A DNA stretch of 61,994 bases from IMG/VR virus record IMGVR_UViG_3300016476_000949, positions 1-61,994 of that record; one strand, written 5' to 3'. Of the stretch, positions 18,366 to 32,224 are shown one piece after another (within the stretch, counting starts at the first letter, position 1; the number at the start of each line of letters is the position of its first letter). A program made the translations under genes and the position numbers. Below the pieces are notes generated by a model. It worked only from the letters and a program-made list of their open reading frames with translations. It ran no database searches and was not told the origin of the DNA. The stretch is from a virus. Its lineage: Duplodnaviria > Caudoviricetes.

Positions 18366-19072
18366 CGCTTCCGTCTGGCGGAACACTGTCCCTGCTCGAC
18401 ATCTACAACGAGGCGCAGCTGTCTCCGACGAGCCCTTGGTATGGGAAGGGAGCCAATCTCGGCTCTTACCGGGGCGTTCAGTGGTGGCAGGACAACTCAG
18501 CAACAGGGACGTTCCCGTCTGGCGCGATATCCGTCAGCGACTTCTACAGCAAGCGCTCCACGTCGCCGGTGACGCCGGGGTATCAGGAATATCTCTCTTC
18601 CGGGACATATACGTTCACGGTCCCCCTCTACAGCACGCTGACGGTTACGGTGAAAGGTGGCTCTGGAGGAGGGGCTGGCCAGAGTGGCAACGCTGCGTCC
18701 GGCGGCTCAGGCGGAGACGGCACGGTCAGCACCTTTGGCAAGTCTCCGGCGACCGTCTACGCCACCGGCGATTACGGCAGGGGCGCGAGTCCCGGCGGCG
18801 TCGGTGCGGCAGGATCTGGCTCCGACGGGTCGCCAGCCGGCGGCGCTGGATGGGGTTCTGGCGGCGCAAGCGGTAAGACCACCGTCGTCCTGACAAACCC
18901 CATCAGCGGCGGCTCCGGGCCGTCCGTAGGGGCGTCCGTGACGGTCGTCGTCGGGTCTCGCGGCGTCGGGGGCGCTCCGGGAGCATACTGGATCACATTC
19001 CCCACCAACGCCGGCTCGTTGGGAAGCGGCAGCCCCGGCAGCGCGGGATCCGTTCAGATCTGGTGGACCTAA
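18362..19072 (+). CDS. glycine-rich receptor-binding adhesin
   Basis: MTLPSGGTLSLLDI...PSGAISVSDFY N-terminus, TFTVP and Gly-rich body; coupled to the fibre gene. Confidence 0.7.
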   Translation: MTLPSGGTLSLLDIYNEAQLSPTSPWYGKGANLGSYRGVQWWQDNSATGTFPSGAISVSDFYSKRSTSPVTPGYQEYLSSGTYTFTVPLYSTLTVTVKGGSGGGAGQSGNAASGGSGGDGTVSTFGKSPATVYATGDYGRGASPGGVGAAGSGSDGSPAGGAGWGSGGASGKTTVVLTNPISGGSGPSVGASVTVVVGSRGVGGAPGAYWITFPTNAGSLGSGSPGSAGSVQIWWT

Positions 19073-19491
19073 AAAGCTTTCGACAGCCGCTCAATCTTTT
19101 TCTGCATCGCCTTTTTCACCGGCACGTAGCACAGGCTATAGTGCTCGGCGCAATACGAGCCGCGCGCACGTTGCCGGCCGCAATAGATCGTGGCATCGTC
19201 CTCGCCGATGATGTAGCAGCATGAGCTGTGTCGAAGATTCATGAGCGTGACGCCGACAACCGGCTCAAGGTGATCGAACAGTCTCTCCACCGGCCTTGGT
19301 TTCTGGATAGCTGTCACCTTTCGGACGCCGTCCTTGTCGATCCTGCCGCGAAGAGTTGCGCCCTTTTCCCTATGTCTTTTGATGACGCCAAGGACCGCGT
19401 TTCTGGATACGTTCAGCTCGGCCGCGATTTGATAACTGCTTTTGTTTTGCTGCCACAGGTCTACGGCCTTTTGCTTCAAAATGGTTTCCAT
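19069..19491 (-). CDS. gcrA: GcrA-family cell-cycle transcription regulator
   Basis: LW...QIAAELNVSRNAVLG HTH and LMNL...CCYIIG...YCG...SYCAEH C-terminal domain. Confidence 0.85.
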   Translation of the reverse strand: METILKQKAVDLWQQNKSSYQIAAELNVSRNAVLGVIKRHREKGATLRGRIDKDGVRKVTAIQKPRPVERLFDHLEPVVGVTLMNLRHSSCCYIIGEDDATIYCGRQRARGSYCAEHYSLCYVPVKKAMQKKIERLSKAF

Positions 19492-19505
19492 TGTTTCCTC
19501 CCAAT

Positions 19506-19528
19506 AAAAAGGGGCGCCGAAGCGCCCC
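19506..19528 (-). terminator. intrinsic terminator immediately upstream of gcrA
   Basis: Minus strand GGGGCGC-TTCG-GCGCCCC-TTTTT. Confidence 0.75.
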
Positions 19529-19547
19529 AGTAGACCCCAAGGAGGGG

Positions 19548-19988
19548 TTATTCGTTCGATTGCCTGACAACGTCTTCCTCGACGCTGTTCAGGACGGCGG
19601 CGAAAGCAGACTCGCTGATGGACGGTCCCGTATTGCGGATGCGCCCCGGAATCTGGGGAAATGCGCGCGTGATATTCTCCCTCTTCGCGGGTTCTTCAGC
19701 GCGAAAGTCCGCTGAATTCTCAGCGTTCTTGTCGGCAAAATGCGCACTGAACGCCGCGTAATTGGCAAGGTCGACGTAGTTGTCGGCGTATGCCGGGTCG
19801 CCGGGGATCCGTCCGAGCTTCACACAGGACAGGATGATAGCGACGTCGTAGGTAGAGATCGGCCGGTCGAGAACGATGCTGGCGATCTTGGAAATACGGT
19901 CGAAGCAGATGTCGCTGTCCCCATACTTCTTGTCGCGATCATTCAGAATTGCGGCGCAGTTTTTCAAAACATCACGATAGTGCATCAC
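19548..19988 (-). CDS. DUF6378-like phage protein
   Basis: RDKKYGD...FDRI...VKLGR...DNYVDLANYAA. Confidence 0.7.
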   Translation of the reverse strand: MMHYRDVLKNCAAILNDRDKKYGDSDICFDRISKIASIVLDRPISTYDVAIILSCVKLGRIPGDPAYADNYVDLANYAAFSAHFADKNAENSADFRAEEPAKRENITRAFPQIPGRIRNTGPSISESAFAAVLNSVEEDVVRQSNE

Positions 19989-27669: not shown

Positions 27670-27890
27670 CAAACATTACATTTATCGGTGGGCGTGAGCC
27701 TATGCGTGAAGGCGAATATCCCCACTACGCTAAGGTTGGGAGTGACGGTGTGACACGTATCGTAAAGCGCAATGAAAATTGCGGAACATACGGAATAGAG
27801 TGGTTCGACGTTTTCAAAAGTGACTGGCTCGCATCCAGCTACAATGCGCTCGACATAGCTTGCGTAACATACGAGGAGCCGCCGAAATGA
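27666..27890 (+). CDS. hypothetical protein
   Basis: ATGA coupling and RBS. Confidence 0.55.
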   Translation: MTNITFIGGREPMREGEYPHYAKVGSDGVTRIVKRNENCGTYGIEWFDVFKSDWLASSYNALDIACVTYEEPPK

Positions 27891-28404: not shown

Positions 28405-28500
28405 ATGAAAATTGAAGAGATTGACGACACATTGAAGGTTGCGATTTTCTATGCCGCCGTCGGCTTTGTGCTTGGCTTCTTGGTCGCCAGCTTTCTATGA
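28405..28500 (+). CDS. 31-aa single-TM peptide
   Basis: MKIEEIDDTLKVAIFYAAVGFVLGFLVASFL; AGGA RBS. Confidence 0.5.
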   Translation: MKIEEIDDTLKVAIFYAAVGFVLGFLVASFL

Positions 28501-28517
28501 TCGCAAGAGTCGGAAAT

Positions 28518-28592
28518 AAAAAACGCCGCCCGGTCTAGAGGAGCCGAGCGGCGAATTTGGCAACAACCGGTAAGGGAGGAAACTTGTTGCGC
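28518..28592 (-). ncRNA. candidate small RNA with two anti-SD hairpin loops
   Basis: Own promoter, hairpin 1 with loop GUUUCCUCCCUU, hairpin 2 (10 bp with a G-U pair that works only on the minus strand) with loop CUCCUCUAGA, then U6. Confidence 0.65.
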
Positions 28593-28597
28593 TAATT

Positions 28598-28626
28598 ACA
28601 ATAAGCGCGACACGACCTCCCGTCAA
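28598..28626 (-). promoter_or_regulatory. sigma70-type promoter of the candidate sRNA
   Basis: TTGACG-N17-TATTGT on the minus strand. Confidence 0.65.
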
Positions 28627-28658
28627 CAGAAGACACATAAAAACGGTGAGGGACAGTA

Positions 28659-30881
28659 ATGATCATCGATTTCGACAACGAATTTGCAGCAGCGGCAGAC
28701 TATGCATGCGTCTATCGCAAGATTGGCTTGCAAGTTGTTCCTTCGCTGTCTCCGAATGAAGCTCCAAAGGCTTGGAAGCGGCCGGCGCTCAGCAACTGGC
28801 GCGAATATCAGAACGAACTGGTCGACGACGCCATGTTCAGTTCTTGGTTCGGAGACGGCGGCGCACATGTATCGCGCACCAATATCGGAATCCTGACGGG
28901 CAAGTGCTCCGGCAATTTGTTCGTCGTCGACCTCGACGAGCACAAGGGCCCGGAGGCGGGCCTCTGGTGGGGCGAGATGCTCGACCGGCAGGAGCGCGCG
29001 GGCGAGATCGAGGAGACCGTCACGCAGATCACCGGCGGCGGCGGCCGGCAGGTGTTCTTCCGGGCGCCGACCGGCTGGACGCCGCCAACCAGCAAGTCTC
29101 CCGTCTACAATGTCGACATCAGGGGTCAGGGCGGGTTTGTCGTCTGCGCGCCGTCGAAGCACATGAGCGGCCGCCATTACGAATGGGTCGAGGGTCTCGC
29201 GCCGTGGGAGGTCGACATTTCCGTCGCCCCGAAGTGGTTTTGCGACGAACTGGACGAGCTGTTCGGCCACGCCAGCGCAGATCCGGCCTCCGGGCCGCGC
29301 GTCAGGACGCCAACACCTGAGGCCCCCGTCGCCCCCTTTGGCGGGATCACCGACGGACGCGAGGACAAGATGTCCCGCATGGTCTGGGCGCGTGTCCTTG
29401 ACATGCACCGGGAGTGCCCCATCGGGCCGCCCAAGGATGCGGAGGTCATCGCCGAGATCGACGACCTCCACCATGAATACGTCAACGCAGTCGCCACTCG
29501 CCTGCCGCATCGCCCCGGCGTCACCAAGGCGCAGCTCTTGGAGGAGGAGGGGCGCGGCTACACCCTCATGACCCAGAAATTTGCCGCCGCCCTGAAGCAG
29601 TGGGACGGCAAGGTCGCGAGGGAGGCGGCCCTCCTGCCCCCAAAGCCCGCAAGGGATGATCCAGCGGCCTTCGCAGGCGCGCTGAGGCCACCTCCAGAGG
29701 CAAGCGAGGAGGCGGTCGTCAACAACCCGGCGACGGCGCCTGTCGACGAGCCGTTCATCAAGGCCAGCGACAAGTTTTTCGAGGTGCTGAGCCTCAAGAA
29801 CCTGATGCAGCTGCCTGACCCAAAATTCATCATCGACGGCGTCATGATCGAGAACGGCCTCACGTTCATTTTCGGCGCGCCCGGGTGCGGCAAGAGCTTC
29901 ATCGCGCAGGGCATGGCGCTGTCCATCGCCGCAGGCCTGCCGCAGTGGTGGGGGCGTGACATCGAGCACGCCGGATCGGTCATCTATCTCGCCTCGGAGG
30001 GCATCGCCGACATGAAGTTCAGGGTCATGGCGTGGTGTCAGGAGACCGGCGTCCCGATGCCCGAGGAGCGGCTCCACATCATCCGGAGCGGTATCAACTT
30101 CACCTCCGTTTCCGACATCAACAAGCTTGCGCAGACGGTCGGGGAATACGCCAGAAAGCTGAGCGAGAACCCGGTCATGGTCGTCGTCGACACCGTCTCC
30201 CGAGTCCTGCCGGGCGTCGACGAGAACCAGCAGAAGGATATGACCATCTTCATCAAGGCCTGCGACTTCCTGCGCGAGACGTTCGGGCTGGCGGTTGTCG
30301 GCGTTCACCATGAGGGGCGCGCCACCGGTCAGATGCGCGGCTCGACCGTCATGCCGGGCGCCGCCGACCAGATCTTCCACGTCAAGCGCGAGAAGGGCTC
30401 CATCGAGGGCGTCTTCATCGCCGAAAAGATCAAGGCCGACGCCGACGGCTGGGAGTGGCCGTTCCTCCTGAAGGAGGCGCAGTTGCCCTTGAGGGGCCTG
30501 AAGCCCTGCAAGAGCCTCTACGCCACTCGCATCACAGACGCCCCTCTGGAGGCCCCCGGAGACGGCTTTGGCGGCCAGCAGGAGACAGGTGGGCAGATGG
30601 TCGGCGGCAAGCGCTGGCCGCACATGGACGTGTGCCGGGACATCGTCCGCGCTATTGGTAAGGCGTGGGCTGACGGCGACCCTTGGTCGATGTCGACGCA
30701 GGCCAAGGGGCGCGGCCGCTACGCCCCCGAGCGCATCTCGAAAGACTTCCCGGTCTCCGTCGAACTGGCCGAGCACATGGTGCGCCGTTGGCTGCTTGAG
30801 GACGTCTTGTCGGACGGCGAAGTGGTCGACACGAAGACCAAAAAACGCGGCCTGAAGGTCAAGAACGGACTTCCCGGATAA
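28659..30881 (+). CDS. bifunctional primase-polymerase fused to an AAA/RecA-type helicase
   Basis: NIGILTG...VVDLD, TGGGGRQVFF, DIRGQGGFVVCAPSKH; Walker A GAPGCGKSF, Walker B VVVDT, HH...MRGS. Confidence 0.9.
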   Translation: MIIDFDNEFAAAADYACVYRKIGLQVVPSLSPNEAPKAWKRPALSNWREYQNELVDDAMFSSWFGDGGAHVSRTNIGILTGKCSGNLFVVDLDEHKGPEAGLWWGEMLDRQERAGEIEETVTQITGGGGRQVFFRAPTGWTPPTSKSPVYNVDIRGQGGFVVCAPSKHMSGRHYEWVEGLAPWEVDISVAPKWFCDELDELFGHASADPASGPRVRTPTPEAPVAPFGGITDGREDKMSRMVWARVLDMHRECPIGPPKDAEVIAEIDDLHHEYVNAVATRLPHRPGVTKAQLLEEEGRGYTLMTQKFAAALKQWDGKVAREAALLPPKPARDDPAAFAGALRPPPEASEEAVVNNPATAPVDEPFIKASDKFFEVLSLKNLMQLPDPKFIIDGVMIENGLTFIFGAPGCGKSFIAQGMALSIAAGLPQWWGRDIEHAGSVIYLASEGIADMKFRVMAWCQETGVPMPEERLHIIRSGINFTSVSDINKLAQTVGEYARKLSENPVMVVVDTVSRVLPGVDENQQKDMTIFIKACDFLRETFGLAVVGVHHEGRATGQMRGSTVMPGAADQIFHVKREKGSIEGVFIAEKIKADADGWEWPFLLKEAQLPLRGLKPCKSLYATRITDAPLEAPGDGFGGQQETGGQMVGGKRWPHMDVCRDIVRAIGKAWADGDPWSMSTQAKGRGRYAPERISKDFPVSVELAEHMVRRWLLEDVLSDGEVVDTKTKKRGLKVKNGLPG

Positions 30882-31257: not shown

Positions 31258-31923
31258 ATGGCAACGGCAGAGTTTGTTACGATTTCGGGCCGTCGTTTTT
31301 TTTCGGTCGGCGACGCGCGGCCGAAGCTGTATTCGGTCAGAGAGGGGCAGTCTGAGATTTACCGCAACAAGGAGCTTTCGCTGCACGCGTTGCTGGCGGA
31401 TGGGGACTGGGTGGCGTGCCGCCTGTATCTGATTGCGGGCCGCAGGCGGCGGACGTGGCACTTTGGCGTAAACGTCGCCGAGCGTCGCGCGTCGCGTGTG
31501 GAGTGCGCCTACCAGCTGGAGGCGGAGAGCCCGGCGGTCATGCGCTGGGTGATCGCTTTCATCTGCGGCGAGCATCGCGAGGCGCCGGCTTTGGGGTCGA
31601 CCGTCGACGCCGCCTTGTCCTGCGCCGATTACGACAAGGCGATTGACCTGATCGAGGCGTCGAGCGCCGACGGGGTCGGGTGGAGCTTCTGGCCGAACAC
31701 GCGCCGCAAGGGGCGCTACGTGGTCGACAACCTGTGTCAGGCCATGCCGGGGGTGTCGGAGAAGGTCGCCTTTCGGCTTGTTCAGGATCTGGCGATGGCG
31801 GATGTGCTGCGCTCGGAGGTGATCGATTCGCGCATGAAGCGCCTGTGTATCGTGGTCAATCGCGACAAGGTCGCGCCGGCCCGCGAGCGGGGACGCTTGG
31901 GAGGGAACGCCAATGCTGAGTGA
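31258..31923 (+). CDS. hypothetical protein
   Basis: Strong RBS AAGGAGG, 221 aa. Confidence 0.6.
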   Translation: MATAEFVTISGRRFFSVGDARPKLYSVREGQSEIYRNKELSLHALLADGDWVACRLYLIAGRRRRTWHFGVNVAERRASRVECAYQLEAESPAVMRWVIAFICGEHREAPALGSTVDAALSCADYDKAIDLIEASSADGVGWSFWPNTRRKGRYVVDNLCQAMPGVSEKVAFRLVQDLAMADVLRSEVIDSRMKRLCIVVNRDKVAPARERGRLGGNANAE

Positions 31924-32224
31924 GGCGTATGTGTCGTCCATGGCGCGCGGCGAGGTGGAGGCCAACGTGATCGCCGAAATGGACGGATGGCAGTTGCAGT
32001 TCATCTCCCGCACGAAGCGTCGCGGCGTCCAGTTTCGCGTCGTCGATGTTCGGGACCAGCAGCTTCGCCGCGACCCGATGTCGCCGGCGCGCCGCGTCTG
32101 GCGTCTGCGCTACAGCGTCCAGTTCGATTCCGTCGGCGACACGTTCGAGGCGCTTCAGGAGTTTTACCCGGAGGTGGCGCGCTGGGCGGCGAGGAGCCTG
32201 CGGGCTTTTTGCGAGGCGGCGTGA
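31913..32224 (+). CDS. hypothetical protein
   Basis: GGAGG RBS, coupled. Confidence 0.6.
   Translation: MLSEAYVSSMARGEVEANVIAEMDGWQLQFISRTKRRGVQFRVVDVRDQQLRRDPMSPARRVWRLRYSVQFDSVGDTFEALQEFYPEVARWAARSLRAFCEAA

Follow-up and report, generated by a model that had tools for sequence, protein, structure and literature searches.

A candidate small RNA gene resembling the alpha-r8 family lies antisense in the primase leader of a freshwater phage

We analyzed a 61,994-bp viral record of IMG/VR (IMGVR_UViG_3300016476_000949; hereafter the window, meaning the whole stretch of DNA studied), the complete genome (CheckV 100%; G+C 60%) of a freshwater phage, and focused on a short minus-strand element located wholly inside the 158-nucleotide (nt) gap (28501-28658) between a 31-amino-acid (aa) open reading frame (ORF) and a primase-helicase gene. 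We think it likely that this element is a real small RNA (sRNA) gene. In the reading we favor, with a probability of roughly 55%, it specifies an independently transcribed RNA of ~74 nt that acts in trans against Shine-Dalgarno (SD) sequences and is a divergent, phage-borne counterpart of the alpha-r8 sRNAs (MmgR/SisA-D); by analogy with these, the RNA is probably Hfq-dependent.

The first line of evidence is the set of signals that delimit the element (Table 1). The promoter with its 17-nt spacer, the two hairpins and the run of six T residues listed in a preliminary description of this DNA are all present on the minus strand, as is a G-U pair in the terminator stem (U28547-G28530) whose plus-strand equivalent is an A-C mismatch. 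The promoter scan returned 3 sites in the 2 kb searched, compared to 0.4 expected from shuffles. Folding of 91 nt gave a minimum free energy of -29.1 kcal/mol (z -2.7), which was reached by 1 of 200 dinucleotide shuffles, and none of 500 mononucleotide shuffles folded as well as the 74-nt RNA. With -20.3 kcal/mol, the terminator is among six sites in the 62-kb window where a hairpin of about -19.5 kcal/mol or lower is followed by a T-run, and a window-wide scan showed it to be the only one of the six that points against the local gene direction. Its U6 tail is likely an Hfq-binding 3' end. The element is overlapped by a single ORF, a minus-strand frame of 47 aa (28495-28638) that has nothing to support it as coding, in line with the earlier view that the RNA contains no ORF. 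The proposal of a free-standing minus-strand sRNA gene with an exposed anti-SD sequence was thus upheld.

The second line of evidence is the loop of hairpin 1. It holds the 10-mer UUUCCUCCCU, which is identical to the signature of the alpha-r8 sRNAs, occurs at 28582-28573 (-) and nowhere else in the window, and has a predicted mean unpaired probability of 0.86. By rough arithmetic, the chance of meeting a given exact 10-mer anywhere in a 74-nt RNA is ~6e-5.

Table 1 Features of the predicted sRNA gene, its surroundings and its candidate phage targets (window coordinates).
Feature	Position	Strand	Basis or remark
-35 hexamer TTGACG of the sRNA promoter	28621..28626	-	Sequence and promoter scan
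-10 hexamer TATTGT, spacer 17 nt	28598..28603	-	Sequence and promoter scan
Predicted sRNA, ~74 nt	28518..28591	-	Folds; both ends inferred (start ~7 nt past the -10 hexamer, end at the U6 run)
Hairpin 1, 7-bp stem GCAACAA/UUGUUGC (28590-28584 with 28566-28560), 17-nt loop GUUUCCUCCCUUACCGG	28560..28590	-	Folds
10-mer UUUCCUCCCU, an exact copy of the alpha-r8 (MmgR/SisA-D) signature, in the hairpin-1 loop	28573..28582	-	Sequence
Terminator hairpin, 10 bp (28553-28544 with 28533-28524), loop CUCCUCUAGA	28524..28553	-	Fold
U6 tail of the intrinsic terminator	28518..28523	-	Sequence
31-aa ORF with a hydrophobic stretch, upstream neighbor of the sRNA gene	28405..28500	+	No family match
Primase-helicase gene, Prim-Pol/AAA_25, 740 aa	28659..30881	+	Pfam PF09250 and PF13481; PHROGs DNA polymerase/primase
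gcrA SD sequence GGGAGGAAAC, candidate trans target	19493..19502	-	Ends one base before the ATG of ORF 19069-19491
GGGAGGGAAC at the SD of ORF 31913-32224	31899..31908	+	Best loop-1 duplex in the phage, -21.0 kcal/mol
Primase SD region GGUGAGGGA, pairing with loop-1 UCCCUUACC (9 bp, one G-U)	28645..28653	+	Rank 3 of 86, -19.0 kcal/mol
GAGGAGCCG at the SD of the ORF starting at 27887	27873..27881	+	Loop-2 candidate of the preliminary description

The closest family is alpha-r8 (Rfam RF00519, suhB), as indicated by the exact 10-mer, and not the cuckoo and AbcR sRNAs to which the RNA had previously been compared. The loop-1 decamer of that comparison is indeed an anti-SD motif, yet it is the alpha-r8 10-mer moved by one base and is not of the cuckoo type. 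Members of alpha-r8 include MmgR of Sinorhizobium meliloti and SisA-D of Caulobacter crescentus. Such RNAs are recognized by a weak hairpin, the sequence 5'-UUUCCUCCCU-3' in single-stranded form behind it, and a terminator of the Rho-independent type (PMC12559287). The same paper reports Hfq association, repression of many targets by SisA via the 10-mer with its anti-SD signature, pairing upstream of the start codon proven by compensatory mutations for one SisA target, and, in Caulobacter, a G/A-rich sRNA (CrfA) that sponges the alpha-r8 siblings (PMC12559287). The window RNA contains the exact internal single-stranded 10-mer (28582-28573 (-)) and ends in a U-tailed Rho-independent terminator (10-bp hairpin and U6, -20.3 kcal/mol), and it has its own promoter. 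Its size (~74 nt) is also close to that of MmgR, described in PMC7143759 as a 77-nt, Hfq-dependent RNA. An alphaproteobacterial setting is probable, since the phage carries a GcrA gene, and the RNAs at the same position in related phages approach or reach the Rfam cut-off (see below).

The likeness to the cuckoo RNAs (alpha-r14, RF02344) is of a more general kind. The window RNA shares with them tandem hairpins, CU-rich anti-SD loops and a terminator. However, cuckoo RNAs consist of 2-4 adjacent hairpins with CCUCCUCCC in every loop (PMC4615179), and the loops of the window RNA, GUUUCCUCCCUUACCGG and CUCCUCUAGA, hold UUUCCUCCC and CUCCUC in place of this motif. An Rfam scan, which the preliminary description had suggested, detected nothing in the window at gathering thresholds and yielded weak matches over the element (ar14, suhB and others). 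The best of them was RF02344 ar14 with 17.5 bits (E 0.15-0.49), far under its cut-off of 58.8, in an alignment that misses one hairpin of the model. No family named ar15 or AbcR was found among the matches with E <= 10 over the element (a result that holds for these two names, if the library contains them).

The third line of evidence is the recurrence of such units at the same position in distant relatives. The primase gene has hundreds of metagenomic relatives, among them closer ones (P0001-P0008) whose primases are 67-92% identical. No match was obtained in cultured phages by a DNA search with 1.6 kb around the element, a protein search of cultured phages gave nothing close (best 31% identity), and IMG/VR scans with exact peptides and with a strict two-loop DNA pattern revealed no relative and no match, respectively. 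Loci were gathered with primase profile scans of IMG/VR, genomes and JGI metagenomes (80 viral, 72 genomic and 80 metagenomic; full-length primase identity <=48%), and 124 distinct primase-upstream regions were compared. In about 100 of these the spacer is missing and the upstream gene abuts the primase gene, and a minus-strand hairpin followed by a T-run is present in 30. On the minus strand, the full layout of the window was detected in 19 of the 124 regions, where a promoter of the TTGNNN-N17 type and its -10 box precede one or two 5' hairpins, a CU-rich motif that is exposed, and a strong terminator (L009, L013, L021, L025, L046, L049, L054, L072, L073, L075, L076, L077, L078, L089, L178, L183, L189, L194 and L206, the last with two tandem units). 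The T-run and the primase ATG are 99-146 nt apart. All 19 units, and that of L262, a 20th primase-adjacent locus obtained from a motif scan outside the 124, are antisense to the primase gene as in the window. The core GCGUUUCCUCCC (A3) is common to several otherwise dissimilar groups, between which stems and spacers vary.

Against the alpha-r8 model, these positional relatives form a graded series. Over the full length of the RF00519 model and exactly at the unit, scores were 41.1 bits for L262, 38.2 for L075, 33.9 for the second unit of L206, 33.6 for L046, 32.2 for L049, 28.2 for L077, 27.6 for L025, 22.5 for L009 and 22.4 for L178; L072 gave no match at E <= 10.

We considered and rejected a plus-strand leader peptide as the conserved element. 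The short ORFs that follow GGGAGGA in one subgroup vary from 5 to 16 codons, shift frame and are missing in other groups. Conservation thus holds for the DNA but not for the proteins of these tiny ORFs, and the conserved entity is therefore the minus-strand RNA, not a peptide. In this subgroup, 1 of 8 predicted pairs of the 5' hairpin was kept through two-sided changes, and 3 further pairs with two-sided changes (of 16 predicted) are all in the terminator.

Two side observations concern the primase-upstream regions. The minus-strand unit of L178 (698-788) reached 34.5 bits with SdsR_RyeB, an enterobacterial model whose cut-off is 38, and its opposite strand 28 bits with SraC_RyeA, a likeness that is probably one of fold only. 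At ~60-130 nt before the primase homologue, five prophage-like contigs of Bradyrhizobium and related genomes (L090, L092, L094, L099 and L100) have, instead of the sRNA unit, a long conserved inverted repeat in which CCCGAGCAA and TTGCTCGGG flank a GCGCACC-N-GTGCG core.

The alpha-r8 family is not confined to primase leaders in viral genomes. An IMG/VR pattern scan for the shared 12-mer followed by a T-run matched at least 120 stretches, and 80 loci were fetched (L243-L322). Their common form comprises a variable 5' hairpin, the weak hairpin GCCC-UCCUU-GGGC, GUUUCCUCCCUAGACUU, a strong terminator and a U-run. The RF00519 cut-off was reached by 10 of the 12 sources tested (41.1-77 bits). A covariance model trained on 16 phage-borne copies (R1), which captured only the weak hairpin (4 pairs) and is essentially a sequence profile, had 66 matches at E <= 0.001 in 63 of the 80 loci. 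A primase homologue lies beside the RNA in only two of the 80 (L262 and L296). Where both neighbors were within 400 nt (28 cases), their orientations relative to the RNA were same/same in 12, same/opposite in 9 and opposite/opposite in 7. Two copies on one contig were seen in L206, L245, L284 and L306.

Two cultured phage genomes carry such RNAs as well. Matches of 62.8 bits to RF00519, neither with an RNA annotation, are present in Bradyrhizobium phage ppBeUSDA76-1 (L363, OP596613.1 16066-16146) and in the record of Microcystis phage Mwe-JY08 (L364, PP395640.1 42319-42402). The recorded host of the latter is cyanobacterial, yet the sRNA family is described as confined to Alphaproteobacteria, so either the host assignment or the range of the family deserves a second look. 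A literature search on these sRNA families and on phage sRNAs found no link of alpha-r8/MmgR to phages, although a prior mention is possible in supplements or in the main phylogenetic paper, which lay outside the search. Enterobacterial phages encode trans-acting sRNAs, for example a lambda-type sRNA (bioRxiv 10.1101/2024.10.31.621285) and AsxR/AgvB (PMC12559287). These are similar in that a base-pairing RNA of the Hfq type, made from a phage gene, interferes with post-transcriptional control in the host. They differ in hosts, sequences and targets, and neither source reports that any of them copies a global anti-SD sRNA of the host.

Several results weigh against placing the window RNA in alpha-r8. 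It scored 12.2 bits with RF00519 (E 2.8-9.3; 28509-28587 (-)), compared to a cut-off of 41, and the model misaligns the 10-mer onto the weak hairpin of the family. That hairpin (Rfam consensus GCCC-UUCUU-GGGC; GCCC-UYCUU-GGGC in more general form) is absent from the window RNA, the AGACUU spacer is replaced, and the 10-mer is enclosed in the loop of a 7-bp hairpin instead of following a weak one. The RNA falls short of RF00519 because it has no weak hairpin and bears the 10-mer in the loop of a longer stem. R1 likewise gave the element 9.6 bits only, for the terminator half alone (28516-28564). L072, the nearest structural look-alike, whose promoter (TTGACG-N17-TATTAT) is the same as that of the window RNA but for one base of the -10 hexamer, has CCUCCCU only and, as noted above, does not match RF00519; a structural alignment of the two RNAs was out of register and uninformative. 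The context is different as well, as the window RNA is phage-encoded and antisense in a primase leader, whereas the host copy adjoins an amidohydrolase gene (PMC12559287). RNA runs containing the element region were looked for, and none was listed. What speaks for descent from alpha-r8 over convergence on an anti-SD motif is position and motif only. We therefore do not file the RNA as a member of the family; it appears to be a divergent alpha-r8 relative, conceivably a convergent mimic, that keeps the seed, terminator, size and position.

The same deficits could mean that the element is a decaying or silent remnant, either an alpha-r8-type gene whose family fold is gone and which no longer works as a regulator, or a chance promoter beside a stray terminator. 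The failure with both covariance models and the missing weak hairpin would fit such a remnant. We find this improbable, given that none of its signals is damaged (promoter, exact 10-mer within an open loop, strong U6 terminator) and that the phage genome is otherwise compact. The element was covered in one of four DNA runs (the probable source sample), in which no variants were seen.

The location of the gene raises the question of a function in cis. The early and replication genes are on the plus strand at ~22.4 kb to 33.9 kb of the window, and the predicted sRNA (28518-28591 (-)) is antisense within the leader of one of them, the primase-helicase gene, the position expected of a countertranscript. 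A plus-strand promoter-like site at 28472-28501 (promoter scan) would produce a leader spanning the whole sRNA, and the plus-strand leader (28501-28670) is strongly folded (-52 kcal/mol, z -3.7, none of 200 shuffles as good). Within it, an inner hairpin is enclosed by the pairing of GGGAGG (28574-28579) with a downstream CCUCCC of the leader. The plus-strand leader fold could be a regulatory structure in its own right.

Plasmid countertranscript RNAs (ctRNAs) such as the repABC ctRNA and CopA of R1, and the OOP RNA of lambda, are known as regulators of the leader to which they are complementary, and are not known to have a conserved anti-SD seed in common. The window RNA is similar to them as a short terminated RNA on the opposite strand directly upstream of a replication initiator gene. 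It could accordingly be a cis-antisense countertranscript that pairs with the primase-helicase leader, or blocks transcription through it, and so sets the level or timing of primase. Besides the placement of the gene in the 158-nt gap and the structured leader, this is favored by the uniformly antisense orientation and narrow T-run distance of the 20 primase-adjacent loci described above, and by the match of loop 1 to the primase SD (Table 1). On the other hand, the part conserved across dissimilar units is the seed of trans-acting host sRNAs, which a purely cis-acting RNA would not need, and the family in phages is mostly away from primase genes (78 of the 80 fetched loci) in mixed orientations. 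About 100 of the 124 relatives do without such a spacer. In addition, the complementarity of each sRNA to its own primase start was no better than that of cross pairs (14 representatives, p 0.10), a test by which we also rejected the primase start region as a general trans target. Taken together, a mainly cis-acting countertranscript seems unlikely.

A further possibility assigns the function to the plus strand, where AGGGAGGAAA in the primase leader would be a target or decoy for host alpha-r8 sRNAs in the style of the CrfA sponge, with the minus-strand signals being minor. The plus strand inevitably bears the complement of the 10-mer (28573-28582), a sponge of alpha-r8 exists in Caulobacter (PMC12559287), and the plus-strand fold is more exceptional than that of the minus strand (z -3.7 vs -2.7). 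This reading is nonetheless very improbable in our judgment, as the terminator is valid on the minus strand only (G-U pair and U-run), the relatives likewise have a promoter at a suitable distance, and it is on the minus strand that the relatives attain their RF00519 scores.

If the RNA acts in trans as we favor, phage mRNAs could be among its targets. We ranked 86 start regions, derived from crude GC3-based gene calls and three hand-added ORFs, some of which are surely wrong, using duplex energies that ignore target accessibility. The exact complement of the loop-1 decamer reported right before the gcrA start is present (GGGAGGAAAC, 19502-19493 (-)), and the ORF that follows (19069-19491 (-)) encodes a GcrA-family protein (PF07750, E 3e-12). 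Among the 86 start regions, that of gcrA alone can form 10 consecutive Watson-Crick pairs with loop 1, and three others follow with 8. The ranking, the phage part of a check that the preliminary description had called for, placed gcrA best for the motif, at rank 1 with the bare 10-mer as the probe (-15.7 kcal/mol) and at rank 2 with the whole loop 1 (-20.1 kcal/mol). The match of loop 2 to the gene starting at 27887 held up in part: it ranks first of the 86 only if three bases of the terminator stem are counted among the nine pairing partners, and the loop alone ranks fifth.

On these grounds gcrA mRNA could be the relevant target, with its SD occluded to time GcrA production, and a host non-coding RNA of Caulobacter, CcnA, reportedly modulates GcrA. 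However, gcrA was picked for its match, so its rank is no test, and ORF 31913-32224 and the primase gene score about equally. A second exact GGGAGGAAAC is located at 52103-52094 (-), within coding sequence and away from any start codon, and with one mismatch allowed the decamer had 4 matches where 4.2 were expected. In keeping with the earlier caveat on chance matches, the decamer can arise by chance in this G-rich genome. GcrA-family genes (PF07750) are present in six of eight related records (G001, G002, G003, G005, G007 and G008), the two without a match being incomplete (68% and 45%), and the SD regions of these genes are mostly weak-looking. In all five records with both the sRNA unit and gcrA (G001, G002, G003, G005 and G007), GGGAGG is missing just before the gcrA start, and in G002 GGGAGGAAA was found only opposite its own sRNA gene. 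The timing of GcrA production proposed earlier is therefore testable yet without support, and we regard gcrA as the relevant target as unlikely.

The region directly upstream of gcrA (19504-19550 (-)) has a structure of its own, CCCC-UCCUU-GGGG followed by a strong terminator (-23.5 kcal/mol). It resembles the weak hairpin and terminator of alpha-r8 without the 10-mer and is the best match of the window to R1 (11.4 bits, E 0.5). The T-run of this terminator ends ~10 nt before the gcrA ATG, with the SD in between. With a terminator just before it, gcrA must be read through it or have an overlapping promoter.

Of the earlier interpretation as a whole, then, the sRNA gene, its recurrence in relatives and gcrA as the best pairing have stood, whereas the family and the timing of GcrA have not. 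Under the alpha-r8-like reading, host Hfq would bind the sRNA through its U-tail, as for SisA, and the exposed 10-mer would pair with SD regions of the GGGAGGAAA type. This pairing would block 30S binding and repress translation in trans. The likely targets would be host mRNAs of the alpha-r8 regulon and, going by SD match, the 31913 ORF, gcrA and the primase gene itself within the phage. With its gene placed antisense in the leader of the primase gene, the RNA could in addition affect primase expression in cis, and the cis and trans actions may coexist.

A 74-nt gene of this kind is reported by no annotation pipeline. For the window alone our claim is modest, namely a divergent relative of the family, and its motif suggests that a phage has borrowed a host regulator. 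If so, transporters, receptors or storage metabolism of the host could be repressed through a phage-made seed, which could also titrate the host sponge RNA. In Caulobacter, recent work has shown that a large regulon is controlled by the alpha-r8 sRNAs and that a dedicated sponge keeps these sRNAs in check (PMC12559287). More tentatively, alphaproteobacterial phages may commonly carry their own alpha-r8 (MmgR/SisA) copies to seize the Hfq-dependent carbon, transporter and receptor regulon of the host during infection or lysogeny. In the Prim-Pol/helicase lineage, such a copy might have been fixed antisense in the primase leader and have diverged, so that one RNA would mimic a host regulator and also tune replication and early genes such as gcrA. 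The RF00519 copies in two cultured phages and the R1 matches at 63 of 80 viral loci, for which no literature link was found, offer a general lead on phage-host RNA mimicry in Alphaproteobacteria. This wider pattern, in which phages carry copies of a host global anti-SD sRNA, is a more interesting lead than the window element itself.

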